Shown here in pieces: positions 39 through 56,255 of a DNA stretch of 64,000 nt. The notes under the pieces were generated by a model. That model ran no database searches and was not told the origin of the DNA. It saw nothing but the letters and a program-made list of their open reading frames with translations. Origin of the DNA: a bacterium (GTDB taxonomy: Bacteria; Sysuimicrobiota; Sysuimicrobiia; Sysuimicrobiales; Segetimicrobiaceae); contig DATGJN010000093.1 in the NCBI GenBank assembly GCA_035295165.1, positions 95-64,094 on the forward strand. The letters run 5' to 3'. Positions within the stretch are counted from its first letter, which is position 1. Each line of letters begins with the position of its first letter. Made by a program: the position numbers and the translations under genes.

Positions 39-67
39 TTGACACAAACCGCCGCCGGGGCTATACT
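39..67 (+). promoter_or_regulatory. sigma-70/SigA-type promoter TTGACA-17 bp-TATACT, about 330 nt upstream of prkA
   Basis: A perfect -35 TTGACA (39-44) and a near-consensus -10 TATACT (62-67) with a 17-nt spacer, read directly from the sequence. It lies in the only AT-rich stretch at the window start. Confidence 0.4.
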
Positions 68-399
68 CGGCTCAAAGTTCGCAGCCCAACGTCGCAGTTA
101 TGCGTGCCACGTCCATTCATTGGGTCGGACCGGGACTATACGGCAGCGGACGACGGAGCGGCACCGAACCAAATATCGTGGTAGGGCGCGGCGGACCATG
201 AAGCCCGGCCGGGGAGCGTGTACGGCTCCTGTGCTGGGCTTCTGCGTTTTGTGTAACGCGGCACCGACCGCCGGAACGATGCATCGATGGCCGACGTACA
301 GTGGGGTAGATACTGAGTGGTCGGAGGTTCCGTGAACGGCAATCGCGTGGAGGTCTTGGGCCGTTCCGCGAAGCGGCGGGCGGCACCCTGCGGGATCGG

Positions 400-2073
400 G
401 TGAGCCGGATGGGCGAGATGACAACGGTCGAGACGTACCTGGCCGCGAGCCGGCGCGATCGGCGTCTGACGCGGACGACGCTCCACTACATCGCCGACAT
501 GATCGACTACTTCGGCAAGGCCCGCGTGTTCGAAGGCGTGTACGGGATGGATTCCCAGCTCGACGAGATCGTCAGCTTCTTTCGCGGGTACGCGATGAGC
601 ATGGAGCGGCGGCTGCTGCTCCTCGTCGGACCGCAGGGCTCCGGCAAGTCGATGACGGTGGACCGCCTCAAGCGCCGGCTCGAAGAGTACTCGCACAAGC
701 CGGACGGGGCGCTGTACGCGGTGGAGCGGTGCCCGTTCCACCAACACCCCTTCGACCTGATCCCGGCGGACGCGCGGGAGGCGGAAGGGCTCTGGTGGCA
801 CGAGGAAGCCGTGCCGTGTCCGGTCTGCGAGCAGACGGTCGCCGCGTGGGGCGGATGGCGGGCCGTACCGGTGCGGCAGATCTTCATCTCGGCGCGGGAC
901 AAGATCGGGGTGGCGAAGCACACGCCGACCGATCTCCGCCGTGAGGACATCACGAACTTTGTCGGCAACATCAACTTTGCGATGCTCAAGGAGCGCGGGT
1001 CCACCTACGATCCCGCGGCGTACGACTTCGAGGGCAAGGTGATCTGGGCCAACCGCGGGGTGCTCGATTGGACCGAGGTGTTCAAGAGCCGCCGCCAGCT
1101 GCTGTCGCTCCTGCTCGAGCTGATCCAGTCGAAGCGGATCGACCTGGCCAACTTTCCGACCGTCCACGTCGACTCCGTCGTGATCGGGCACACGAACTAC
1201 CCCGAGTACAACGTGTTCCTCTCCGAGGACATCATGGAGCCGCTCCGGGGGAGGATCCACAAGATCGACTTCCCCTACAACGTGGACGTGGGTGGCGAGA
1301 CGCGGATCTACCGGGGCCTGGTCGAGCGGGCGAATCGGGTTCGCGGGGAAGAGAAGCACGTTCCCTCGGACGTCTTCGACCTGGCGGCGACCTACGCGGT
1401 GAAGACCCGGCAGGAGTCGCAGGGCCTCAAAGGACTCTCTCCGCGCTTCTTTGAAGACGCGTTCTCGCTGGCCTATACTCGCGCCGGACGCTGCATCGAT
1501 CTCGAGGTGATCACCGACGCGATCGAGCAGACCTTTGCACACCAGTCGATCAAGGACCTCAACCAGAAGGACCTGTTGAAGCTGTTCGAAGAGACCAAGG
1601 TCGAGTTCATCAACAAGAAGGTCGACGTGATCGTGGAGGAGATCGTCCCGAGCCACTTCTACGACTACGCGCAGAATCTCTACCTGAACTACCTCGACGT
1701 CGCGGCCCGCAGCGTGCTCGGCGAGGCGCTGTCGGACAGTGAGAAGGAGCTGCTCGACGAACTGGAGGGCGTGCTCGTGCAGAAGCGCCAGATCAGCCGC
1801 CAGGGGCGCGTCGCGTTCGAGAACGTCTTGCTGGAACGGCGGGACGAGCTGCGCCGGATGAGCTACCGCGACAACGAGCACCTCGCGGGCGCGATCAACG
1901 AGGTCGTGTTCAACAAGATCAAGAACTGCCTGCGCCTCTACGAGAAGACCGAGGAGATGGACCAAAAGAGCCGCGACCTGCTGGACGTCCTGCAGCGCAG
2001 CGCCGTCGAGGAGCACGGGTACTGCCCGTCGTGCGCGCCGTCGCTGTTCAAGATCATCGGCCGGAGCTTCTAG
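400..2073 (+). CDS. prkA: PrkA-family serine protein kinase (AAA+ ATPase domain), YeaG/PrkA
   Basis: 557-aa ORF with a Walker-A motif GPQGSGKS and PrkA-like conserved blocks. It is followed by yhbH and spoVR homologs, matching the conserved yeaG-yeaH-ycgB / prkA-yhbH-spoVR operon. Confidence 0.88.
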   Translation: MSRMGEMTTVETYLAASRRDRRLTRTTLHYIADMIDYFGKARVFEGVYGMDSQLDEIVSFFRGYAMSMERRLLLLVGPQGSGKSMTVDRLKRRLEEYSHKPDGALYAVERCPFHQHPFDLIPADAREAEGLWWHEEAVPCPVCEQTVAAWGGWRAVPVRQIFISARDKIGVAKHTPTDLRREDITNFVGNINFAMLKERGSTYDPAAYDFEGKVIWANRGVLDWTEVFKSRRQLLSLLLELIQSKRIDLANFPTVHVDSVVIGHTNYPEYNVFLSEDIMEPLRGRIHKIDFPYNVDVGGETRIYRGLVERANRVRGEEKHVPSDVFDLAATYAVKTRQESQGLKGLSPRFFEDAFSLAYTRAGRCIDLEVITDAIEQTFAHQSIKDLNQKDLLKLFEETKVEFINKKVDVIVEEIVPSHFYDYAQNLYLNYLDVAARSVLGEALSDSEKELLDELEGVLVQKRQISRQGRVAFENVLLERRDELRRMSYRDNEHLAGAINEVVFNKIKNCLRLYEKTEEMDQKSRDLLDVLQRSAVEEHGYCPSCAPSLFKIIGRSF

Positions 2074-2092
2074 GGGACCCGGGGCGCGTGTC

Positions 2093-3235
2093 ATGAAGAT
2101 CCACCGCGGACGCATCGCCCAGTACAAGCACGATGCCCTGCTGCGGGACTATCTCAAGCAGAACCTGAACGACCTGATTCAGCAGAAAGAGCTGATCATC
2201 GACGGACGGGTGAAGACCCAGATCGCCACGCTGGATCTGCCGACCCTCAAATTCGGCGAGGACGCGCAGTTCCTGGCCCAGGGCGGGGGCGGCGGCGGCG
2301 CCGGGGCGGGCGGCGGTGCGCAGGGGGCCGGCGGCGAGCAGGTCCAGGCACTCGGCGGCTTGCTCGGCGGAGACCACCACGGCCGGGAGCTGACCGTCGA
2401 GCTGGACTTCGACGAGTTCGTCCGGTTGGCCCAGGAGGTGCTGCTCGACGAGCTCTGCCTGCCGACGTTCCACGAGCCCACCCGTTCCGGCGAGGTGGAG
2501 ACCCAGGACACGCCGGAGCTGGACGATCTGGACCGGATCGGGCTCCGGGCCGACCTGAACCTCGAGGAGACGATGGCGCAGAGCCTGCTGCGCAACGCCC
2601 GGGAGCGGGGGCAGCTGCAGTACGACGTGGATGTGCAGCAGGACGGGTGGTACTTCATTGAAGATCCCACGACGTTTCGGAACCACCGCTCCGTGGAGAT
2701 CTACGTCCTGGATATCTCCGGCTCGATGCGCGGCGAGTACCTCGCCCTCGTGCGCAAAACGATCTTCGTCCTCTGGCACTATCTCGAGCGGCGCTATCCG
2801 ACGAACCTCCGCCGGTACGTCGTCTTCCAGGACGTGGCCGAGGAGAAGGGGCGTGACGAGTTCTTCTGCGTGGAGTCGAGCGGCGGGACGCACATCAGCA
2901 CCGGGTTTCAGAAGGCGGTGGAGCTGCTGGCCGGGGTGACCGAGTACGACAAGTTCCTGTTCATCTTCACCGACGGGGAGACGAGTTCCGGCGACTTCGA
3001 CGTGGCGAAGCGCGCGTATGAGGAAGCGCTCGGCGCGTTCGATCTCGTCACCTACGGCCACGTGAACCCCGGCGGCCGGGGCGTCGGCGGCTTCAGCGAG
3101 CACGTCCAGGAGACGGTGCGGTCCCGCCAGGGCGCCATCTTCGCGAACCTCGTCGATCTCGAGACGATCCGCGCGACGATGCGGGAGTTTCTCGGCTTCT
3201 TCGATGCCCGGGCGGCCGCGGCGGCGCCGCAGTGA
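2093..3235 (+). CDS. YhbH/YeaH family protein (DUF444, vWA-like), stress/sporulation-associated
   Basis: 380 aa. The N-terminus resembles DUF444 and there is a Gly-rich linker and a vWA-like C-terminal part. It sits between prkA and spoVR and overlaps the spoVR GTG by 4 nt (GTGA). Confidence 0.8.
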   Translation: MKIHRGRIAQYKHDALLRDYLKQNLNDLIQQKELIIDGRVKTQIATLDLPTLKFGEDAQFLAQGGGGGGAGAGGGAQGAGGEQVQALGGLLGGDHHGRELTVELDFDEFVRLAQEVLLDELCLPTFHEPTRSGEVETQDTPELDDLDRIGLRADLNLEETMAQSLLRNARERGQLQYDVDVQQDGWYFIEDPTTFRNHRSVEIYVLDISGSMRGEYLALVRKTIFVLWHYLERRYPTNLRRYVVFQDVAEEKGRDEFFCVESSGGTHISTGFQKAVELLAGVTEYDKFLFIFTDGETSSGDFDVAKRAYEEALGAFDLVTYGHVNPGGRGVGGFSEHVQETVRSRQGAIFANLVDLETIRATMREFLGFFDARAAAAAPQ

Positions 3236-4410
3236 CCCGCGAGGGGACGGCGATGCTGAGCGAATACGAGCCGGTCATCCGCCGGTTGGAGGGGTTGGCC
3301 CACGACCGCGGCCTCGCGTTCGACCCCGTGATCTTCCAGATCACGGACAGCGACGCGATCGCGGAGGTCGCCAGCATGGGCCTCCCCAACCGGTTCATCC
3401 ACTGGTACTGGGGCGGGGCGTACAAGGAGCTCGTGACCCAGCAGAACAAGGAAGTGTTCACGATCCTCGAGCTGGTGCTCAACACGGCGCCGTCGCACGC
3501 GTTCTTGCGGAGCGCCAACACCTATCTGCAGAACGTGTTGGTGATCGCCCACGTCCTCGGCCACGCCGACTTCTTCGCGAACAACCACTGGTACCGCAAG
3601 TCCAACAAGAACATGCTGAACCACACCGAGCAGCACGCGCGCCTGATCCGGAGCTACGAGCTCCAGTACGGCCGCGAGCGCGTCGAGAAACTGCTCGACG
3701 CGCTGTTGACGGTGGCGACGTCGGTGAACGCGTTCGAGCGGAACCCGCAGGAGCGGCGGAAGCGCCTGATCTACTACCTGGAGGAGCGCGCGCCGCTCGA
3801 CGAGTTCGAGCGCGTGCTGCTGGACGCGATCTGCGAGGAGGCGGAGTACTTCGACCTCATCCAGCGGACACACCTGATCAACGAGGGCTGGGCGACGTTC
3901 ATCGAGGCCGAGCTGCTCACCCGGCTGCTGACCGCCCGCCAGTGGGCGAGCCTGTCCGTGCAGCTCTGCAACCGGCCGGCGCCGTACACGATCGGGTACA
4001 CGCTGTTCAAGCACGTGCGCGACCGCGAGGGGTTCGCGCGGGTGCTAGAGATCCGGCGGTTCTACGAGGACGTGAGCCTGATCGACGTCGCCCTGACGGC
4101 AGAGATGGTGCGGCGCCTCGATCTGTTTGTCTACGATCCCAAGGAGAAGCAGAAGAGCTACGACCTCCCGAAGGTCAAGGACATGCTGATCGCGCAGAAA
4201 CTGTACAAGGGAGAGCCGCGCGTGGAGGTGGACCCGGCGTCGCAGGGCCGGGACCTGCTCCTCGTGCATATGGACGAAGACCGCAAGCTCGAATCAAAGC
4301 GCGTCGGGCTGTTCCTGAAGGCCGTGTACGCGTTGTGGCGGAACCCGGTCAAGCTCCGTGCGAACGGCAAGGTGTACACGTACGACCGCCGAGGGCTCTC
4401 CTCGACGTAG
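3232..4410 (+). CDS. spoVR: SpoVR family protein (YcgB-like)
   Basis: 392 aa with SpoVR-like conserved blocks (HWYWGGAYKEL, HVLGHADFF). The start is either the GTG at 3232 (4-nt overlap with yhbH) or the ATG at 3253, which has a GAGGGGA RBS. Confidence 0.82.
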   Translation: MTREGTAMLSEYEPVIRRLEGLAHDRGLAFDPVIFQITDSDAIAEVASMGLPNRFIHWYWGGAYKELVTQQNKEVFTILELVLNTAPSHAFLRSANTYLQNVLVIAHVLGHADFFANNHWYRKSNKNMLNHTEQHARLIRSYELQYGRERVEKLLDALLTVATSVNAFERNPQERRKRLIYYLEERAPLDEFERVLLDAICEEAEYFDLIQRTHLINEGWATFIEAELLTRLLTARQWASLSVQLCNRPAPYTIGYTLFKHVRDREGFARVLEIRRFYEDVSLIDVALTAEMVRRLDLFVYDPKEKQKSYDLPKVKDMLIAQKLYKGEPRVEVDPASQGRDLLLVHMDEDRKLESKRVGLFLKAVYALWRNPVKLRANGKVYTYDRRGLSST

Positions 4411-32370: not shown

Positions 32371-32401
32371 TTGACACCACGCCTGCGGTGTGGTGTTCTA
32401 T
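32371..32401 (+). promoter_or_regulatory. candidate promoter of the amtB-glnK leader (-35 TTGACA; -10 region GTTCTAT)
   Basis: A perfect -35 hexamer at 32371-32376. The -10 is weak (TTCTAT/GTTCTA, spacer 18-19). Confidence 0.3.
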
Positions 32402-32450
32402 CAAACAAGCCGCGAGTCCGCGCCGACCGCGTGGCCTTGGGTGCCGTGAC

Positions 32451-32485
32451 GCCAGCCCAACGAACCGTTGGGGTGGCGTTTTTTT
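32451..32485 (+). terminator. intrinsic terminator/attenuator inside the amtB 5' leader: 12-bp stem (one G.G mismatch), AAC loop, then GTTTTTTTG
   Basis: 5' arm GCCAGCCCAACG (32451-32462), 3' arm CGTTGGGGTGGC (32466-32477), T7 tract 32479-32485. It lies about 95 nt upstream of the amtB ATG and downstream of the TTGACA element. Confidence 0.5.
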
Positions 32486-32580
32486 GTGCCCCGGGCGGCT
32501 TGAGGCCGGGACGCCTCCGATTGCGAGACCTGGACGCGCGTGGCGGCAGACCACCGCGCCTGTGACGAGGAGGAGGCACG

Positions 32581-33882
32581 ATGACAACGACACCGACGCT
32601 CAACGGGGCGGATCTTGCTTGGATGATGACCGCGACCGCACTGGTGCTCCTCATGACGCCCGCGCTCGGCTTCTTCTACGGGGGCATGACCGGCAACAAG
32701 AACGTCCTGAACACGATCCTGATGAGCTTCACCACGCTTGGGTTCTCCCTGGTCGCGTGGGCCCTGGTCGGGTACTCGCTCGCGTTCAGCCCCGGCAGCG
32801 CCCTGCTGGGCGACCTCCGCTGGATGCTGCTCAACCATGTCAACCTGGCGCCCGGCCAGTCGTTGAGCCCCACGATCGCCCCTGTCATCTACATGGCGTT
32901 CCAGGCGACGTTCGCGATCATCACGACGGCGCTCGTCTCGGGCGGCATCATCGGGCGGATGCGGTTTCAAGCGTACCTGGTGTTCATCACGCTGTGGATC
33001 GTGTGCGTGTACGCACCGATTGCCCACTGGGTGTGGGGCGGAGGCTGGCTCGGGAGTCTCGGCGCGCTCGACTTCGCGGGCGGGACCGTTGTGCACGTGA
33101 ACGCAGGAGTCGCCGCGCTTGTCGCCGCGCTCGTCGTGGGCAACCGCACGGACTACGGACGGCAGGCGTTCGTGCCGGGGAATGTCCCGTTCGTGCTGCT
33201 CGGCGCCGCACTGCTCTGGTTCGGGTGGTTCGGCTTCAACGGCGGCAGCGCCGTGGCGTCGAACGGGCTCGCCGCCCTGGCGTTCGTGAACACGTTCCTG
33301 GCCCCTGCGGGAACGATGGTGGTGTGGGCACTGCTCGACATGCGGCGTCTCGGGAAGGTGACCGCGATCGGGATCGCGAGCGCGATCGTCGTCGGACTGG
33401 TCGTGATCACGCCCGCGTCCGGCTTTGTGCCGCCGATCTGGGCCCTCGTCATGGGCGGGCTCGGCGCCGTCCCAAGCTACTATGCGATGCAGTGGCGGGC
33501 CAAGACTCCGGTCGACGAGTCCCTGGACGTCTTCGCCGGGCACGCGGTCGGAGGGGCGACCGGCGCGATCCTGACCGGCGTATTCGCGGTCAAGGCGTGG
33601 AACACCGTGCAGAACGGGTTGATCGCCGGCAATCCGCAGCAGATCCTCATCCAGGCGCTGGCGGTTGCCGGGGCGGCGGCCTACAGTGCGCTCGGTACGT
33701 TCGTACTCCTCAAGGTGATCGGCGCCGTGATGCCGCTGCGCGCCGCCCGTCAAGATCAGGCGCTGGGGATGGATCCCACCCAGCACGGCGAGGAAGCGTA
33801 CACGGGCGGCGAGGGTACCGTGTTGGTGCTGCCGGAGATCTCGCCGCAACCGAAGCTGGAATCAGCGAGGGCGAAGGCATGA
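32581..33882 (+). CDS. amtB: ammonium transporter AmtB
   Basis: 433 aa, about 11 TM helices, with Amt signature blocks (DFAGGTVVH, GFNGGS). It overlaps the glnK ATG (ATGA). Confidence 0.9.
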   Translation: MTTTPTLNGADLAWMMTATALVLLMTPALGFFYGGMTGNKNVLNTILMSFTTLGFSLVAWALVGYSLAFSPGSALLGDLRWMLLNHVNLAPGQSLSPTIAPVIYMAFQATFAIITTALVSGGIIGRMRFQAYLVFITLWIVCVYAPIAHWVWGGGWLGSLGALDFAGGTVVHVNAGVAALVAALVVGNRTDYGRQAFVPGNVPFVLLGAALLWFGWFGFNGGSAVASNGLAALAFVNTFLAPAGTMVVWALLDMRRLGKVTAIGIASAIVVGLVVITPASGFVPPIWALVMGGLGAVPSYYAMQWRAKTPVDESLDVFAGHAVGGATGAILTGVFAVKAWNTVQNGLIAGNPQQILIQALAVAGAAAYSALGTFVLLKVIGAVMPLRAARQDQALGMDPTQHGEEAYTGGEGTVLVLPEISPQPKLESARAKA

Positions 33883-34229
33883 AGATCATCGTGGCGATCG
33901 TGCGTCCCGAGAGGGCCAACGACGTCTTGGAGGCGCTGTACAGGGCCGAGGTGCGCGGACTGTCGCTTAGCCGCGTGCAAGGGCACGGCGGCGAGCTTGA
34001 GCGCATGGAGACGTATCGCGGGATGACCGTCAAGGTTGAGCTCACCGAGAAAGTGCGCTTCGAGATCGGCGTGTCGGACCACTTCGTCGAGCCGACCGTG
34101 CGGGCGATCATGCTCGCGGCGCGCACCGGCGAGGTCGGCGACGGGAAGATCTTCGTGCTGCCGGTGGACAAGGTGTACCGAATTCGGACCGGCGAAGAGG
34201 ACACGGCGGCGGTGACCCCGGTCGGCTGA
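33879..34229 (+). CDS. glnK: nitrogen regulatory protein P-II (GlnK/GlnB)
   Basis: 116 aa, MKIIVAIVRPERANDVLEAL... It has a T-loop region with RYRG-like RGMTVKVE and the C-terminal GDGKIFV motif. This is the classic amtB-glnK operon. Confidence 0.9.
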   Translation: MKIIVAIVRPERANDVLEALYRAEVRGLSLSRVQGHGGELERMETYRGMTVKVELTEKVRFEIGVSDHFVEPTVRAIMLAARTGEVGDGKIFVLPVDKVYRIRTGEEDTAAVTPVG

Positions 34230-49233: not shown

Positions 49234-49457
49234 CGCGGGTGGAGGCCGGGAGTCGATCGGCCTCCACGCCCGCTGTGCCGGGCCAGAACGCGGTTGGCAC
49301 TCAGCGTGCAGCGACGTGAGGCCTCGGCGGCCACGGGCATCAAACTCGTCGACGCCCGACCGTGGGCGGAGGGAGGGGCGGGCGAAGAGAAATCGGCGAG
49401 GCCCCACCGAACTTCCGGCGGGGCCTCGCCTCCGGCCCGGGAGGGGCGTCCCGGAAC

Positions 49458-50900
49458 CTACACGTCGTAGTAGAGGAAGAACTCGTACGGAACCGGTCGG
49501 ATGTCCACCTCATAGAGCTCTTTCGTGCGCTTGTAGTCGACCCAGGTGTCCAGCAGGTCCCGCGTAAAGACGTCTCCCTCCATCAGAAACTCGTGGTCTG
49601 ACTCGAGCGCCGCGAGCGCGGCGCCGAGGGAACCCGGCACGCTCTTGATCTTGGCCGCGTCCTCGGGCGAGAGGTGGTACGTGTTCGTGTCCAGCGGACC
49701 GAACCCCGCCTTCGTCGGGTCGATCTTCCGCTTGATCCCGTCCAACCCGGCCATCAGCATCGCGGCGAACGCGAGATACGGGTTGCACGTCGCGTCTGGA
49801 CACCGGAACTCGAGACGCTTGCTCGCCGCGGCCGCGGGCCCGGCGAAGTACATCGGGATGCGCACCGCCGCGCTCCGGTTGCGCTTGCTGAACGCGACGT
49901 TCACCGGGGCTTCGTAATGCGGCACGAGCCGGCGGTACGAGTTGGTCGTGCACGCGCACAGCGCGAGGAGCGCGTCGACGTGCGTCAACAGTCCGCCGAC
50001 GTAGTAGAGGGCGTCCTGGCTCAACTCCGCGTAGCCGCCCTCACTGTAGAATAGGTTCGCGCCGCCTTTCCAGAGGCTCTGGTGTGTGTGCATCCCGGTA
50101 CCGTTGTCGCCAAACAACGGCTTCGGCATGAACGTCGCCGTCATGCCGTGGCGTCGCGCGATGTTCTTCACGATGTACTTGTAGCTCAGCAGGCTGTCGG
50201 CCATCCTGGTGAGCGTGTTGTACTTCATGTCGATCTCGCACTGCCCCGCCGAGGCGACCTCGTGGTGCTGCATCTCCACCTCGATGCCCCACGCTTCCAT
50301 CTGGAGCGACATCTCACTGCGCAGGTCCAGCAGCGTGTCGGCCGGCGGAACAGGGAAGTAGCCCTCCTTGGTGCGGATCCGGTTGCCCATTCCGGGCTGC
50401 CCGGTGTTCCAGACGGCCTCGGGGGAGTCGATGCTGTAGCCCATCCGGTGCGGAAGCACTTCGTACTGCACGTTGCTGAAGACGAAGAACTCCGCCTCCG
50501 GCCCCCAGTAGCTCACGTCCGCGACTCCCGACTGCTTGAGGTAGTCCTCCGCCTTCTGCGCGACGTACCGGGGATCGCGGGAATATGGCTTGCCCGTGGT
50601 GGGATCGTTGACGTTGCAGACGATCGACAGCGTCGGGATCTCCGTAAACGGGTCGGGATGAGCCGTCGCCGGATCGGGCATGAGGAGCATGTCGCTCTCT
50701 TCGATCGCCTGGAAGCCGCGGATGCTGCTCCCGTCGAACCCGATGCCGCGCTTGAACGTTTTGTCGTCGATCTGGCTCGCCGGAATCGTCGCGTGCTGCC
50801 ACGTGCCGGGCACGTCCACGAACTTGAGATCCACCATCTTGATGCCGCGGTCCTTGATATACGCGACGACATCCTGTGCGGTCATCTCCTTGCCAGGCAT
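49458..50900 (-). CDS. glnA: glutamine synthetase type I (GlnA)
   Basis: 480 aa, close to actinobacterial GlnA1 blocks (DGSSIRGFQ, KPLFGDNGSGMH, NRSAAVRIP, and the adenylylation-region tail). RBS GGAGGTGGAG. Confidence 0.92.
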   Translation of the reverse strand: MPGKEMTAQDVVAYIKDRGIKMVDLKFVDVPGTWQHATIPASQIDDKTFKRGIGFDGSSIRGFQAIEESDMLLMPDPATAHPDPFTEIPTLSIVCNVNDPTTGKPYSRDPRYVAQKAEDYLKQSGVADVSYWGPEAEFFVFSNVQYEVLPHRMGYSIDSPEAVWNTGQPGMGNRIRTKEGYFPVPPADTLLDLRSEMSLQMEAWGIEVEMQHHEVASAGQCEIDMKYNTLTRMADSLLSYKYIVKNIARRHGMTATFMPKPLFGDNGTGMHTHQSLWKGGANLFYSEGGYAELSQDALYYVGGLLTHVDALLALCACTTNSYRRLVPHYEAPVNVAFSKRNRSAAVRIPMYFAGPAAAASKRLEFRCPDATCNPYLAFAAMLMAGLDGIKRKIDPTKAGFGPLDTNTYHLSPEDAAKIKSVPGSLGAALAALESDHEFLMEGDVFTRDLLDTWVDYKRTKELYEVDIRPVPYEFFLYYDV

Positions 50901-50950
50901 TTCTCCACCTCCGCATCCCCCGCCCCGGGATTATGTCTGGATTGTCGGGC

Positions 50951-50988
50951 CAAACAAAAACGCCCTCCGAGCCGATGCTCGGAAGGCG
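50951..50988 (-). terminator. intrinsic terminator/attenuator in the glnA 5' UTR: 11-bp stem (one mismatch), hexaloop, then UUUUUGUUU
   Basis: Minus strand: CGCCUUCCGAG-caucgg-CUCGGAGGGCG then UUUUUGUUU (plus coordinates 50961-50988 stem, 50951-50960 A-run). It lies between the predicted glnA promoter (about 51024-51052) and the glnA RBS (about 50910). Confidence 0.55.
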
Positions 50989-51023
50989 TCCAGGCCCCCG
51001 GTACCTCTGAGTACCTAGTGAGT

Positions 51024-51052
51024 TTTATACCACGTCAGGCGGATGAAGTCAA
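51024..51052 (-). promoter_or_regulatory. near-consensus sigma-70-type promoter TTGACT-17 bp-TATAAA driving the glnA leader
   Basis: Minus-strand -35 at 51047-51052 and -10 at 51024-51029, read directly. The predicted TSS is about 20 nt upstream of the terminator hairpin. Confidence 0.5.
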
Positions 51053-51075
51053 CCGGACGTCCCTCATGTGTCACG

Positions 51076-51092
51076 GTTCAGGCGGTTTGTTG
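51076..51092 (-). promoter_or_regulatory. CAACAAAC-n5-GAAC element immediately upstream of the glnA -35; shares the 8-mer CAACAAAC with the amtB upstream repeats
   Basis: Read directly (minus strand GGGGCAACAAACCGCCTGAACCGTG). Confidence 0.2.
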
Positions 51093-51247
51093 CCCCGTAG
51101 CTGCTCAGCGATTCTGTCACTTGGGCATGAAGGATCCGGGAGCCGATTGCGTCGACGCGGAGCAACCACCGGGCGCAGGTCCTGACACAGGTGCAGCGGG
51201 GGCGCTCACGGTGGAAGAGGCGGCCTGCTGTTGGGCCGCTTATGACC

Positions 51248-51289
51248 GGGACGGCCGCCGACGGCACGGCACCGCTCGGCGGCCGTCCC
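51248..51289 (-). terminator. perfect 14-bp-stem hairpin just after the VOC gene stop (no U-tract)
   Basis: GGGACGGCCGCCGA-n14-TCGGCGGCCGTCCC, 20-60 nt downstream of the stop at 51309. Likely a factor-independent terminator/RNA stabiliser of the high-GC type. Confidence 0.35.
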
Positions 51290-51308
51290 GGATGCGCGGA
51301 GTGGTGCC

Positions 51309-51656
51309 TTAGCTCTTGACCAACCCGACGCGATTGCCGTCCGGATCGGCGAAGAGCGCGAACGTCACCATACCCGGGATCTCAGTGGGCGGAACCACGG
51401 TCTTGCCGCCCAGCTGCTGGACTTTGTTCAAGTACGCTTGGAGGTCGTTCACGCGCACGTAGAACGTGACCTGCTGCTGCCCGTCCGGCGACGTGCCGAT
51501 GCCCCCGCCGACGCCGCCGGCGTCTTTGCCGTCGACGAGCCCGTACCCCATCGGGTTGTCGGCGTTGACCTTCCATCCGAAGAGCTGGCCGTAGAACCGC
51601 TGGAGCTTTGGGCCGTCCTTTCCCATGATCTCCCAGTGCACGACCGGATCGCCCAT
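51309..51656 (-). CDS. VOC family (glyoxalase/bleomycin-resistance) protein
   Basis: Start at the third of three ATGs (51656) with an AAGGAGG RBS. 115 aa, HWEIMGKDG...GNRVGL glyoxalase fold. Confidence 0.7.
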   Translation of the reverse strand: MGDPVVHWEIMGKDGPKLQRFYGQLFGWKVNADNPMGYGLVDGKDAGGVGGGIGTSPDGQQQVTFYVRVNDLQAYLNKVQQLGGKTVVPPTEIPGMVTFALFADPDGNRVGLVKS

Positions 51657-51847
51657 CATCATCCTCCTTGATCGATCAGGGTGCCCGAACTGGCGTGCGC
51701 CCGTGGACCTGCTCCAGGCTCGAACTCGGCGAGGCAGAGGAGCGCGAAGCGGCGCGTTTAATGCGGCGTCCTCCAGTCTGCCAGCGTGGAGTAACGTTCG
51801 TGTAGCGCAGCGCGGTCGGGCCGGATGCCGCCCGGACGGTTGCGGCG

Positions 51848-52637: not shown

Positions 52638-52795
52638 GTCGGAAGGTTAGCATATACTTACGTTAGTGTCAACTAACTTACGTGTGTGGCCGATGACGTC
52701 GATTCAGACGGCGCCGGGTGGGGGGTACGCGCGCGGCTTGACACGGCTCCCCCGCGGTGCGGGCGATGACGCGTCCGGCCGTTCGGGCCCGGGGG

Positions 52796-54586
52796 TCAGC
52801 GGTGCTTTCGCCGGGCACCCGACGCCGCCGGGCGCGAGCCGGCAGGCCGACGGGCCGGGTGCTTGGCGCGGGCCTTGGGCCCGGCCCGCTTCGCGGCCGC
52901 GCGCGCGGGCTTCGGGGCCTTCTTTGCTCCTGGCTTCGCCCTGGTTCGGGGCTTCGACGTCTTTGCGGCCGCGCGCCGGGGCGCGGCCGGGGCGGCCTCC
53001 ACGCCGCCGACCGGGACGAGCTCGAACATGGTGGTCGGCGCCGGCACCCCGGCACCCTTGACGGCGCCCGGAAGGATGCGAAACACGGGGCACAAGAACA
53101 CCTCGATCCTCCCCCCCCCGGGGGCGAACAGCGCGGGGAGGTGCAGTGTCCGGAGCCCCACGATCGTCAGCGGTCCGCTCGGCGGCGTGGTAAGCCATCT
53201 ACGCACGGTGTCATAGGCCGGCGTGCTGGGGGCCGCGACGGCAGTGATGCGCGTCCGGCCGGCAGCGTCCCCGAACGCGAAGAGAAACGGCCGGCCGTCC
53301 ACGAATTGGCTCCGTCCGCCATAGAACTGGCCGGTCATATAGACGTACGCGGTTTCGGTGACCGGGGCGTGCCTGAACGTCATCGTGCCGCCGGTAAACG
53401 CCACGCGGGTCGATGGCTGGAAATCTGGGAATGGCATCGGGTGGACGCTCTCGACCTGTGTCCACTCCGCTCCACCGGGGGCATCGACGGGGATCGGCGG
53501 AAACGTGAGCCCCCGTTCCGTCGTGACGCTCCGCACAGGATGGATCTCCAGCAGTCGGGGTACGGCGGGGTGCGTGCCCGAGGCGTGGTCAGGCAGCAGG
53601 CGCAGCAGCCCCGTCACGGTGACCCGCTGCTGCGTGGCGATCACCTCGTCCAGGAGTTGCGCGTACTGGCTGTGGGCGGTTCCTCCGGCGTCGAGCGCGC
53701 CCGGCCGGATTGTGTTTTGGATCACGCACGCGATGATGCCGCCGTCGGACTCCCCGGTAGAGGGCGCCAGGCCGAACGCCACACCGAGCCCGTACTCGCC
53801 TTCGGGGCCGCGGGCGGTGACGTGTCCCTCCACGCTCACGTCAACCCCCGGTGTGAAGCGAAGGTAGGCGAGGGGTTCGGCTCCCGACACGACGAGATCC
53901 GGTTGGTCCGTCGATCCCGGCATCATCCGGACGGCGCTGAGCACGCGCAGGAGATCCGCCGGCGTCCTCACGTCGATCCGTCCGGCGGGGCGGGCCGGCG
54001 TGTGCTGCCGCATCTCGTCCGAGACGAGGATCGCGCGGGCGATTTCGCGCATCGGCGTGCGCGAATTCCGGCTCTGCCGTTGGATCCGCAGGAACGCCTC
54101 CTGCTCGTCGATGCCCTCGCGCTGCATCAAGATGCCCTTCGCTCGGTCCACCAGCTTGCGGGTCTCGAGGGTCTCCTTGAGATTGCCCACTTCCTGCTGG
54201 AGCGCGCGCAGCTCAGCGAAGCGCGCCATCGCGACTTCGATCACGGGAACCAGCTCGGCCTCGCGCACCGGCTTCACGAGGTAGGCGAGCACGCCGGCCT
54301 CCTGGGCGCGCTGCACGAGGTCGCGCTCGCTCCACGCCGTGAGGAGGATGATCGGCCGCGGCTGGCGCGTCATGATCGTGGACGCCGCCGAGATGCCGTC
54401 GAGGCCAGGCATCTTGATGTCCATGAAGATCAGATCGGGGGCGAGTTTGCCGGCGAGCGTCACCGCCTCCTCGCCGTCCCCGGCTTCCCCGACCACCTTG
54501 TAATCGTGTTCCTCGAGCATCGTCCGCAGGCCCATACGGATGACCGGCTCGTCGTCGGCGATCAGGATGCGCATCGCGTCGATCAT
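52796..54586 (-). CDS. response regulator with REC + ANTAR RNA-binding domains (PdtaR/AmiR/NasR-type) fused to a ~390-aa uncharacterised C-terminal region and a Lys/Ala/Pro-rich basic tail
   Basis: REC domain (ILIADDEPVIRMGL...MPGLDG with a phospho-acceptor D). ANTAR helices (KLVDRAKGILMQREGIDEQEAFLRIQRQSRNSRTPMREIARAIL). The rest is protein-like but unrecognised. The last 60 aa are an AKP-rich histone-H1-like tail. Confidence 0.8.
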   Translation of the reverse strand: MIDAMRILIADDEPVIRMGLRTMLEEHDYKVVGEAGDGEEAVTLAGKLAPDLIFMDIKMPGLDGISAASTIMTRQPRPIILLTAWSERDLVQRAQEAGVLAYLVKPVREAELVPVIEVAMARFAELRALQQEVGNLKETLETRKLVDRAKGILMQREGIDEQEAFLRIQRQSRNSRTPMREIARAILVSDEMRQHTPARPAGRIDVRTPADLLRVLSAVRMMPGSTDQPDLVVSGAEPLAYLRFTPGVDVSVEGHVTARGPEGEYGLGVAFGLAPSTGESDGGIIACVIQNTIRPGALDAGGTAHSQYAQLLDEVIATQQRVTVTGLLRLLPDHASGTHPAVPRLLEIHPVRSVTTERGLTFPPIPVDAPGGAEWTQVESVHPMPFPDFQPSTRVAFTGGTMTFRHAPVTETAYVYMTGQFYGGRSQFVDGRPFLFAFGDAAGRTRITAVAAPSTPAYDTVRRWLTTPPSGPLTIVGLRTLHLPALFAPGGGRIEVFLCPVFRILPGAVKGAGVPAPTTMFELVPVGGVEAAPAAPRRAAAKTSKPRTRAKPGAKKAPKPARAAAKRAGPKARAKHPARRPAGSRPAASGARRKHR

Positions 54587-54587
54587 G

Positions 54588-56255
54588 CTACACTCCCGCC
54601 GGCCGTGGCATCGTGATCACCGCGCGCGTGCCGCCCGCGTTCGTGAAGTCGATCCGGCCCTTGAGGTCATCCCGAACGAGCGTGTGCACAATCTCGAGCC
54701 CCAGGTCGCCGGACCGATCGGGGGAGAACCCCGGCGGCAGTCCGATCCCGTCGTCCTGGACCTCGACCCGCAGCGTGTCGCGTCCGGCCGCGAGCGTGAT
54801 GAGCACCGTGCCGTTGGTCCGCCCGTTGAACGCATGCTCCATCGCATTCTGCAGCAGTTCGTTGACGACGAGCGCGAGCGAGGTCGCCTGCCGGCTGGGC
54901 AGACTGACGTCGTCGCCGGTGACCTTGACGGCGAGCGCGAACCCGGGCGGGGCCATCGTCTGTGAGACGGTCTGAGCCACGTGCTCGAGCATCTCGCGGG
55001 CGACGACCTGGCGTACGCCCTCCGCGGCGAGAATCTCGTGCACCGCGGCGATGCTGAGGATCCGGTTGATCGTCTCCGTCAGCACCTCGCGGCCGGAGAC
55101 CTCCCGGCCGTCGCGCAGTTGCAGGCGGAGGAGCATCGCGATCATCTGCAGGTTGTTCTTGACGCGGTGGTGCATCTCGCGGACCATCGCCGACTTCACG
55201 ACCAGACTGGCGTTCTCGATCGCAAGCGCGGTCTGGTTGGCGAGGGTCTGCAGCATGTTGATCTCCGACTGGGTGAACTGGTGCCGCCGCGCCGTGTAGC
55301 AGTTGATCACGCCGAGCGTGCGGTCTCGTACCCGAAGCGGCACCGAGAGCAGTGACCGCACGTGGGGCGGCTCGACCAGCTCGTGCGCGAGGAAGCGGGG
55401 GTCGCTGGCGAGGTCCAGGCTCGCCGCCGGCTGGCCGCTGGCCGCGGCCTCTCCGGGAATACCCTCCCCGGCGCGAAGGGTGCGGCGGGGGCGGCTCCCC
55501 GATGGTTCGGGGTGGGCCGCGGCGAGCACGAGCTCATCGCCGTCGAGCAGCATCAACGTGCACATCGGCGCGTCGAATACCCGCGCGGCCATCTCCACCA
55601 CCAGCCGGAGGATCTGCTCGAGGTAGAGCGGCGAGGTCAGCGTCTCGCTGACCTCGGCGAGCGTACGGAGCTCCATGATCTGGCGCCGCATGCTGTCGTA
55701 CAGGCGCGCCTTCTCGAGGGTGCCGCTGGCGAGGTCGGCGATAATGCTGAGCAGCTCGACCTCGTCCTCGCCCCACTCGTGCGCGCCGGTCGTTTGGACG
55801 TTGATCGCGCCGAGCACTTTGCCGGCCACGGTCAGCGGCACGGCGAGCAGCGACTGGAACAGCACCTCGTGCGTCTCCGGGAGGAGCTTGAAGCGCGGAT
55901 CCGCCGCCGCGTCGGTGGAGGCGACGGGTTGCCCCGTGTCGGCCGCCCAGCCGGTCAGGCCCTCGCCCAGCCGAAGGCGGGCGCGGCCGATCGCGTCCGC
56001 AGCGAGGCCGGTCGTGGCGTTGAGGACGAGGTACTCGCGTGAGGCGTCCAGGAGGTAGATCGAGCAGCTGTCCACCCGCATGACCTCCGCGGTCGTGCGG
56101 GTGATCAGGGTGAGCGTGGTGTCGAGGTCCAGCGCGGCGCTGATCGCCCGGCTGATGGCGCGGAGCGCGGAGATTTCCGCCGTCTTCCGGGCGAGCTGTT
56201 GGGTCGGACCGTGTTCTCGGGTACGCTCGTGCGTCATCGCCCCTCCGTGCGACAC
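54588..56255 (-). CDS. sensor histidine kinase with two GAF domains and a HisKA_2/HATPase core (PdtaS-like)
   Basis: Two GAF blocks. H-box MVREMHHRVKNNLQMIAMLL is typical of HisKA_2. C-terminal ATPase G-boxes. It sits immediately upstream of, and on the same strand as, the ANTAR regulator. Confidence 0.8.
   Translation of the reverse strand: MSHGGAMTHERTREHGPTQQLARKTAEISALRAISRAISAALDLDTTLTLITRTTAEVMRVDSCSIYLLDASREYLVLNATTGLAADAIGRARLRLGEGLTGWAADTGQPVASTDAAADPRFKLLPETHEVLFQSLLAVPLTVAGKVLGAINVQTTGAHEWGEDEVELLSIIADLASGTLEKARLYDSMRRQIMELRTLAEVSETLTSPLYLEQILRLVVEMAARVFDAPMCTLMLLDGDELVLAAAHPEPSGSRPRRTLRAGEGIPGEAAASGQPAASLDLASDPRFLAHELVEPPHVRSLLSVPLRVRDRTLGVINCYTARRHQFTQSEINMLQTLANQTALAIENASLVVKSAMVREMHHRVKNNLQMIAMLLRLQLRDGREVSGREVLTETINRILSIAAVHEILAAEGVRQVVAREMLEHVAQTVSQTMAPPGFALAVKVTGDDVSLPSRQATSLALVVNELLQNAMEHAFNGRTNGTVLITLAAGRDTLRVEVQDDGIGLPPGFSPDRSGDLGLEIVHTLVRDDLKGRIDFTNAGGTRAVITMPRPAGV

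Follow-up and report, generated by a model that had tools for sequence, protein, structure and literature searches.

The glutamine synthetase gene glnA is preceded by a regulated attenuator in the window, by which we mean the whole 64,000-nt stretch analysed here (contig DATGJN010000093.1 of assembly GCA_035295165.1, positions 95 to 64,094). Because an intrinsic terminator separates the only conserved promoter from the ribosome-binding site, expression of glnA needs read-through, as had been proposed in an initial annotation of this DNA. Most likely, this attenuator depends on a protein and is of the ANTAR type. The initial annotation had suggested an attenuator or riboregulator of a kind undescribed for glnA; the attenuator stands, with a protein-dependent ANTAR mechanism in place of an undescribed riboregulator, and glutamine synthetase genes of Firmicutes and others were already predicted in 2012 to have ANTAR leaders (PMC3369931). 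Two elements were missing from that annotation: a second hairpin, P2, which overlaps the terminator, and an ANTAR two-component system encoded 3 kb upstream.

The glnA leader combines two hexaloop hairpins with an intrinsic terminator

All elements of the glnA leader lie on the minus strand. Its promoter (51024..51052) consists of a −35 hexamer TTGACT (51052-51047) and a −10 hexamer TATAAA (51029-51024), separated by a spacer that reads as 17 nt ending in TGg (extended −10); judging from these letters, transcription should start near 51017. The promoter is unlisted in our strict promoter scan, which requires T as the last −10 base. Beginning 8 nt past the −10 hexamer, at roughly position +2 to +5 of the predicted RNA, is the hairpin P1, GGUAC[UCAGAG]GUACC (51015-51000), with 5 bp and a six-nucleotide loop that carries G at position 4 (G4) and A at position 5 (A5); its folding energy is −4.6 kcal/mol. 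The initial annotation was right about this hairpin and placed it too far downstream, at about 20 nt past the transcription start.

P1 is followed by the putative antiterminator hairpin P2, GGGGGC[CUGGAC]GCCUUC (50999-50982), which has 4-6 bp in all, a 4-bp core GGGC/GCCU (50997-50994 paired with 50987-50984) and a folding energy of −6.5 kcal/mol. P2 overlaps the 5' strand of the intrinsic terminator (50952..50990), which comprises a stem GACGCCUUCCGAGC/GCUCGGAGGGCGUU (50990-50959) with loop AUCG and a tail UUUUUGUUU (50960-50952). The terminator stem has 14 pairs (15 by the terminator scan), 9 of them G-C, rather than the 11 bp given initially, and reaches −27.3 kcal/mol alone; the U tract UUUUUGUUU directly follows the GC-rich stem, as predicted for an intrinsic terminator. 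The loop and 3' strand of P2, GACGCCUUC (50990-50982), are the first nine bases of the terminator 5' strand (50990-50977). Further downstream are the Shine-Dalgarno sequence GGAGGTGGAG (50912-50903) and the glnA start codon, ATG at 50900 (Shine-Dalgarno sequence plus gene, 49458..50912). The gene product is a type I glutamine synthetase of 480 aa with the Pfam domains Gln-synt_N and Gln-synt_C, and glnA has a terminator of its own (49430-49395).

Folding energies set the two states apart. P1 plus P2 amounts to −13.6 kcal/mol versus −33.3 kcal/mol for P1 plus terminator, and for a nascent transcript that ends at the terminator loop the minimum-energy fold is P1 plus P2 (−14.7 kcal/mol). The fold of the 125-nt leader reaches −56.9 kcal/mol (z = −3.6), a stability attained by 0 of 200 shuffled sequences.

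The leader is conserved and stays with glnA

Searching with GlnA in one genome per species yielded three close relatives (loci L001, L002 and L031; 85-86% amino acid identity), all of which share the order of a VOC-family (glyoxalase) gene and glnA, the promoter, both hairpins and the terminator. A scan of metagenomes with a DNA pattern gave 16 matches, 15 being the same leader before glnA and one a chance match inside a coding region. The leaders of L104-L106 were obtained through GlnA homologues alone (83-84% identity) and are free of pattern bias; they have the layout of the window leader (promoter, hairpin, terminator and T-rich tail) with more variation. The closest named relatives of the host are metagenome-assembled genomes (MAGs) of Armatimonadota; it is not the high-GC Gram-positive assumed initially.

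The promoter, in the form TTGAC(T/G/C)-17/18-TGGTATA(A/T)(A/G/C), is present in all 18 distinct orthologous leaders. P1 and the terminator stem are likewise kept in the 18, at a distance of 6-9 nt between −10 and P1, and 17/18 have the T-rich tail, with 6-8 T per 11 nt. An alignment of orthologous upstream regions for covariation, proposed in the initial annotation, comprised 21 sequences, the window leader and twenty other distinct ones with its layout. The terminator helix is paired to 98.6% across them, with compensatory changes at 6 pairs; for each of five covariation measures, no more than 1 of 500 shuffles attained the observed value, and shifting the structure by 1-3 columns left pairing at only 43-51%. 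The P2 core of 4 bp is paired in 21/21 leaders, its fourth pair being G-C, G-U or A-U. We conclude that the leader is a real, functional-looking element linked to glnA.

This conservation bears on two simpler explanations of the hairpin and terminator. The hairpin lies downstream of the VOC gene on the same strand and could be the terminator of that gene, an outcome that the initial annotation had named as a possible refutation. The stop codon of the VOC gene is ~320 nt upstream, however, and is followed by a GC-rich hairpin of its own (51300-51243); the conserved promoter intervenes between the VOC gene and the hairpin, and relatives in which a different gene, or no such gene, lies upstream still have the leader. 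A mere 3' end of the VOC transcript is therefore scarcely credible.

The unit might alternatively be a free-standing small RNA of ~70 nt, either a sponge for an ANTAR protein like EutX/Rli55 or a trans-acting RNA, with glnA transcribed from elsewhere. The strength of both promoter and terminator, with only a short structured transcript between them, would suit such an RNA, and in the window there is also a possible weak promoter between the terminator and the Shine-Dalgarno sequence (TTGTTT-16-CATAAT, 50957-50930). Yet CATAAT is not kept in relatives, the gap between terminator and glnA ATG is just 37-59 nt in 16/17 measurable leaders (123 nt in L087), and the unit stays with glnA even though the gene upstream of it may be VOC, the regulator described below, amtB, GntR or DinB. 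We consider a free-standing RNA quite improbable; a terminated RNA could have a side role alongside attenuation. TTGTTT-16-CATAAT was rejected as the main glnA promoter, being found in the window only and not conserved.

One feature of the promoter alignment is unusual: the last base of the −10 is never T in the 18 leaders, and TGG always precedes the −10. This may reflect a promoter preference of the lineage or dependence on the extended −10.

The hairpins have features of ANTAR target sites

By the published definition, the target of an ANTAR antiterminator is a pair of small hexaloop hairpins of which the second forms part of a terminator (PMC3369931). P1 (5 bp) and P2 (4-6 bp) are such tandem stem-loops of at least 3 bp with six-nucleotide loops. 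All 21 leaders have G4 in P1 and in P2; as 15 of the 21 came from the pattern that fixed bases of P1 and of the P2 core, including the G4 of P2, six leaders are independent for the P2 loop. In the P1 loop, G4 (21/21) and A5 (19/21) are conserved, and the remaining positions are variable.

G4 of P2 also occurs in distant leaders, where hairpins of the form GGGC[CNNGA(C/A/U)]GCCC accompany a terminator upstream of glnA (L097, L098, L099, L033, L011, L028 and L052). L099 in addition keeps P1 as GGUAC[CGUGCC]GUACC, followed by a linker of 15-17 nt, P2 and a terminator. Leaders with canonical loops are found before glnA as well. In L004, of Anaerolineae, UUCGC[AACGGC]GCGAA and AGAC[AACGAG]GUCU accompany a terminator, and Moorella glnA leaders carry GGGC[AAAGAC]GCCC (L045, M. 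thermoacetica) and GAGC[AAAGAC]GCUC, each with a terminator. L052, also of Anaerolineae, has GGGUGC[CAUGAA]GCACCC and GGC[CGAGAU]GCC with a terminator. In L097, L098 and L033 there is no clear P1 hexaloop; these loci share a GAAUCA / GAAAUCAAAU motif in that position, between promoter and P2, which may be an alternative upstream element.

To compare glnA leaders with other terminators, we used fold-based terminator prediction in 83 loci fetched with GlnA, in place of a perfect-stem scan that had missed several leader terminators. A strict P2 rule, written after seeing the data, required a closing C-G pair, a hexaloop with G4 plus A5 or A1 and overlap with the terminator 5' strand. By this rule, P2 occurs at 14 of 34 terminators at most 260 nt upstream of glnA versus 21 of 495 elsewhere (odds ratio 15.8, Fisher p = 1e-9). 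Some of the background matches are probably true sites before other nitrogen genes, for example amtB in L098. A looser descriptor (hexaloop with G4, at least 3 bp, terminator overlap) was discarded as non-specific, matching 7 of 30 terminators in the window and 104 of the 495 in the loci. A match GTTCCGGGACGCCC after the glnA stop codon (49444-49457) forms no hairpin and overlaps no terminator, and was set aside as a chance match.

P1 could instead be read at the level of DNA, as an operator (GTA-N8-TAC, a box of NtcA/CRP type) for a dimeric factor, the terminator then being a constitutive attenuator or insulator. GTA-N8-TAC fits by eye, the P1 stem is unchanged in 20/21 leaders and in L099, and the palindrome stays 6-9 nt from the −10 though its distance to P2 shifts from 2 to 15-17 nt. 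Against an operator, conservation in the spacer of the palindrome is strand-asymmetric, limited to G4 and A5, unlike that of a symmetric DNA site; such a pattern speaks for an RNA element and not for a palindrome in DNA. Moreover, the palindrome lies at about +2 to +17 and not at the activating position −41.5, no −10 stands at the right distance downstream of it, and it occurs once in the 64 kb. An operator would also leave the overlap of P2 with the terminator, the recurrence of the element at amtB and the linked ANTAR genes unexplained. We therefore regard it as improbable.

A riboswitch for glutamine or another nitrogen metabolite, or a target of some other RNA-binding protein, would work independently of ANTAR proteins and could likewise use a terminator/antiterminator architecture, which is generic. 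The ~45 nt before the terminator 3' strand hold two minimal hairpins, with no junction or conserved core of a binding pocket. Conservation is centred on loop positions (G4, A5) and closing pairs, resembling a protein site, and the linkage to ANTAR genes would again be unexplained. No Rfam family matched the region 50500-51700 at E ≤ 10, including the glutamine riboswitches glnA RNA and Downstream-peptide; the initial annotation had not been able to fit the glutamine riboswitch here either. Generic hairpin matches to the leader stayed below threshold (ctRNA_pGA1, 21 bits versus a gathering score of 45), and nothing in the whole window reached a gathering score. As Rfam also found nothing in the canonical ANTAR leaders L004, L032 and L045, and so offers no usable model for such leaders, its silence on the window leader is neutral between a riboswitch and an ANTAR target. 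A metabolite riboswitch or ANTAR-independent protein target appears highly unlikely, and we prefer the ANTAR-type attenuator.

Several observations weigh against an ANTAR-type attenuator, beside the late origin of the strict P2 rule. The A at loop position 1 (A1) of the published consensus is absent: in the window P1 has U here and P2 has C; of the 18 pattern-matching leaders, 16 have U in P1, one has A and one has C, and P2 has C in 21/21. In the crystal structure of EutV with RNA, the flipped-out G4 makes the only base-specific contact and A1 contacts no protein (PMC8934654); the missing A1 therefore points to a variant rather than against the mechanism. The linker between P1 and P2 is 2 nt with a 4-bp P2 or 0 nt with a 6-bp P2. 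In Enterococcus faecalis the linkers span 5-12 nt, and EutV was impaired by one of 3 nt; an actinobacterial survey gave a range of 2-25 nt. P1 and the P2 core are near-invariant in the clade, so that almost no covariation supports them, and outside the clade a P1-like hexaloop hairpin upstream of P2 was found in only 6/14 lineages versus 4.1 expected, a rate not above chance. In L002, an Armatimonadota MAG, P1, P2 and the terminator stem are kept without a U tract, in whose place stands GCCUAUGCCC (1205-1240); termination there may be weak or proceed by different means. Finally, the hydrophobic methionine 'plug' that EutV needs for RNA binding, Met172, corresponds to Arg173 of the regulator encoded in the window (about 54068-54070, minus strand), and this arginine is invariant in 31 homologues.

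A REC-ANTAR regulator and a histidine kinase are encoded upstream of the leader

On the glnA strand, 3.1 kb upstream, two adjacent genes encode a response regulator of 596 aa (52796..54586, minus strand; Pfam REC at residues 7-116 and ANTAR at 135-187) and a cytoplasmic histidine kinase with the Pfam architecture GAF-GAF-HisKA_2-HATPase_c (54588..56255, minus strand). The regulator is most likely the antiterminator protein of the glnA leader, and the kinase is its presumed partner. Both regulator domains score above Pfam thresholds (Response_reg 98.6 bits, ANTAR 76.1 bits), and Asp56 aligns with the acceptor aspartate of EutV in an MDI motif. Against solved structures, the first 190 residues match Rv1626/PdtaR (E 1e-57, 51-52% identity) and EutV (E 1e-40, 41%), and the predicted structure of the regulator resembles Rv1626/PdtaR and EutV, including RNA-bound EutV.

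In EutV, G4 is stacked against Tyr164, with Arg142, Lys149 and Glu160 holding it (PMC8934654). In a gap-free alignment to 6wsh, the three holding residues are kept as R143, K150 and E161, and the aromatic one as F165. The plug residue is arginine also in the regulators of L098, L052 and L027, and methionine in L004, EutV and Rv1626. Loops that start with C/U accompany arginine in the window clade, L098 and L052, and loops that start with A accompany methionine in L004, EutV and Rv1626. This tracking of plug residue and loop base, three lineages versus three, is suggestive only. We tentatively raise the possibility of a distinct ANTAR specificity subclass, defined by arginine in place of the methionine plug, a pyrimidine at loop position 1 and invariant G4-A5.

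The regulator further carries a conserved C-terminal extension of ~400 aa (residues 200-596; 52796-53989, minus strand) with a basic tail rich in Lys, Arg, Ala and Pro. The homologues of the extension number 45, with identities of 62% or more, and come from this clade only; REC-ANTAR is fused to each of the full-length ones. Pfam gave no match to the extension, and a full-length search gave REC/ANTAR matches only. Two AlphaFold runs returned no confident fold for it (mean predicted local distance difference test scores of 61 and 52, low beyond residue 368). The extension could provide extra input or contact RNA or RNA polymerase. Apart from its two GAF domains, the kinase has no further sensor domain in the Pfam scan; it may sense an intracellular metabolite that reports nitrogen status.

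The regulator gene recurs upstream of the leader in seven relatives. Orthologues of 579-605 aa are encoded upstream of the glnA leader in L083, L084, L088, L092, L104 and L105, and in L093 the locus edge cuts the regulator so that the ANTAR end alone is seen; a regulator is upstream in every relative with enough flanking sequence (L083, L084, L088, L092 and L093). L104 and L105 have the order PPase, kinase, regulator, leader and glnA, with nothing intervening. In the window, genes for an ArsR-like protein, an AHSA1-domain protein and a VOC protein are inserted between the regulator and the glnA leader. More distantly, L098 (Armatimonadota; GlnA 70% identical) holds a cluster of gltB, a REC-ANTAR gene, GNAT, amtB and glnA, in which GGGC[CGCGAC]GCCC and a terminator precede glnA and two such modules precede amtB, making three modules of P2 plus terminator in total. 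In L004 and L052 an ANTAR gene lies just upstream of glnA.

Overall, this suggests a model of the following kind. RNA polymerase would start at the conserved promoter and first transcribe the hexaloop hairpins P1 and P2. If these remained unbound, the downstream strand would capture the 3' strand of P2, so that the more stable terminator would form and transcription would end at the U tract, ~70 nt into the RNA. Upon phosphorylation by the GAF-GAF kinase, a dimer of the REC-ANTAR regulator would bind the hexaloops, stack on the flipped-out G4 and keep P2 closed; with the terminator blocked, polymerase would continue into glnA. Protein binding, control by phosphorylation and nitrogen limitation as the signal are proposed here by analogy with EutV/EutW, GnfR/GnfK and NasR. 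The same regulator would probably also control amtB-glnK.

Further candidate targets in the window

A probable second target of the regulator is the amtB-glnK leader (32371..32580, plus strand), which has a TTGACA promoter (32371-32376), a terminator (32448-32489) and a hairpin (32503-32516). The ammonium transporter gene amtB is the open reading frame 32581-33882, and the P-II gene glnK comes next (about 33879-34229). The terminator of this leader has seven U, a folding energy of −24.4 kcal/mol and the 5' base GACGCC. In the hairpin, AGGC[CGGGAC]GCCU, the flank GCCUCC pairs in the fold with the Shine-Dalgarno sequence GGAGGC; relatives have AGGC[CGGGAU]GCCU (L100) and AGGC[CGCGAU]GCCU (L101) with GCCUCC kept, and both preserve the terminator in structure. 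In L102, GGU[CGUGAC]GCC overlaps a terminator. An added translational switch that would free the sequestered ribosome-binding site is a speculative possibility for the amtB leader.

A third ANTAR target may be the leader (39-255, plus strand) of an operon of prkA, DUF444 (yeaH-like) and spoVR (400-4410). A promoter TTGACA-17-TATACT (39-67) is followed, after ~130 nt, by GGAC[CAUGAA]GCCC (193-206), which has an A.C mismatch in its stem and overlaps a strong terminator (191-255; −33.5 kcal/mol). In E. coli, nitrogen starvation induces the homologous genes yeaG-yeaH.

Relation to known regulatory systems

The mechanism is most likely that of EutV/EutW, NasR and AmiR, and especially that of GnfK/GnfR. 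In Geobacter sulfurreducens, GnfK/GnfR control of glnK, amtB and nif genes rests on experiments (Ueki & Lovley 2010; PMC2995071): as proposed here, a histidine kinase and a REC-ANTAR regulator relieve premature termination in leaders of nitrogen-assimilation genes. The RNA site of GnfR, CAGGCAANGGCGCC, reads GGC[AANGGC]GCC, with the same GGC/GCC stem and a G4 hexaloop over a terminator. Its loop has A at position 1 and G at position 5, whereas the window loops have C/U at 1 and A at 5. GnfK lacks a sensor domain and is encoded apart from gnfR, in contrast to the window kinase with its two GAF domains and adjoining regulator gene. The window target is glnA behind a sigma-70-type promoter, whereas the GnfR system uses an RpoN promoter, and the phyla differ.

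EutV/EutW of E. faecalis shares with the window the dual hexaloops, a P2 within the terminator, a REC-ANTAR dimer and the key role of G4 (PMC3369931, PMC8934654). EutV sites have A1 loops and linkers of 5-12 nt, and EutV itself has the Met172 plug and acts on ethanolamine-use genes; the window system differs in lacking A1, in its linker of 0-2 nt, its Arg plug and the extra 400 aa, and in its nitrogen-assimilation targets. PdtaS/PdtaR of Mycobacterium tuberculosis is the closest solved relative on the side of the regulator (Rv1626), and its kinase also combines HisKA_2 with a GAF domain at the N terminus. The plug residue of PdtaR is Met, and the protein lacks a C-terminal extension. Most ANTAR RNAs of mycobacteria overlap a ribosome-binding site and act by repressing translation (PMC8164766), unlike the main element of the window, which overlaps a terminator. 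Glutamine riboswitches (the Rfam families glnA RNA and Downstream-peptide) are also cis-acting RNAs of nitrogen-metabolism genes, but they bind glutamine directly and come from cyanobacteria and marine metagenomes, whereas the window leader consists of two minimal hairpins and a terminator.

The closest match in target gene is computational. Table S2 of Ramesh 2012 lists ANTAR matches upstream of glutamine synthetase, for example in Moorella thermoacetica and Alkaliphilus metalliredigens (PMC3369931). These Firmicutes leaders share the target gene and the architecture with the window leader and have canonical A1 loops; like ours, they are computational predictions. In the literature that we searched, we found no experimentally tested case of an ANTAR leader at glnA. 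The 2012 survey reported ANTAR leaders in four phyla, and its tables name neither Armatimonadota nor Chloroflexota (PMC3369931). The core mechanism will be expected by specialists and the surprise is moderate; new are the phyla (relatives in Armatimonadota, and Anaerolineae), the A1-less loops, the change from Met to Arg and the long extension of the regulator.

These data point to control of glnA and of ammonium uptake after transcription initiation in Armatimonadota-like soil bacteria and Anaerolineae. Such control would run through a two-component ANTAR antiterminator and not through NtrC, GlnR, TnrA or NtcA, and it would extend the link between ANTAR proteins and nitrogen beyond the four phyla of the survey. 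Search models that require A1 would miss the A1-less variant. The apparent pairing of Arg plug and pyrimidine loop amounts to a natural experiment on the specificity of ANTAR proteins for RNA; should the pairing hold, targets could be predicted better and the design of orthogonal antiterminator switches would benefit.

Minor elements of the leader and neighbouring loci

A third small hairpin (AUCCCG...CGGGGGAU; 50915-50931, minus strand) lies directly 5' of the glnA Shine-Dalgarno sequence. It is kept as GUCCCG-GGC-GGGAC in most relatives and is missing in L090. This hairpin is possibly outside the switch and might affect mRNA stability or ribosome access.

The insertion of genes for a small ArsR/SmtB-like HTH protein and an AHSA1-domain protein between the regulator and glnA was seen in this genome only. 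Ahead of these genes, an inverted repeat GTTAGTTGACACTAAC covers a TTGACA promoter-like site (52650-52700, minus strand) and looks like a classic autoregulated operator. In other phyla, modules of hexaloop and terminator also occur past glnA, with GGGAC[AAAGGC]GUCCC at ~4546 in L056 and AAGGC[CAUGAU]GCCUU at ~4568 (plus strand) in L048; each probably serves as the leader of a nitrogen gene that follows.

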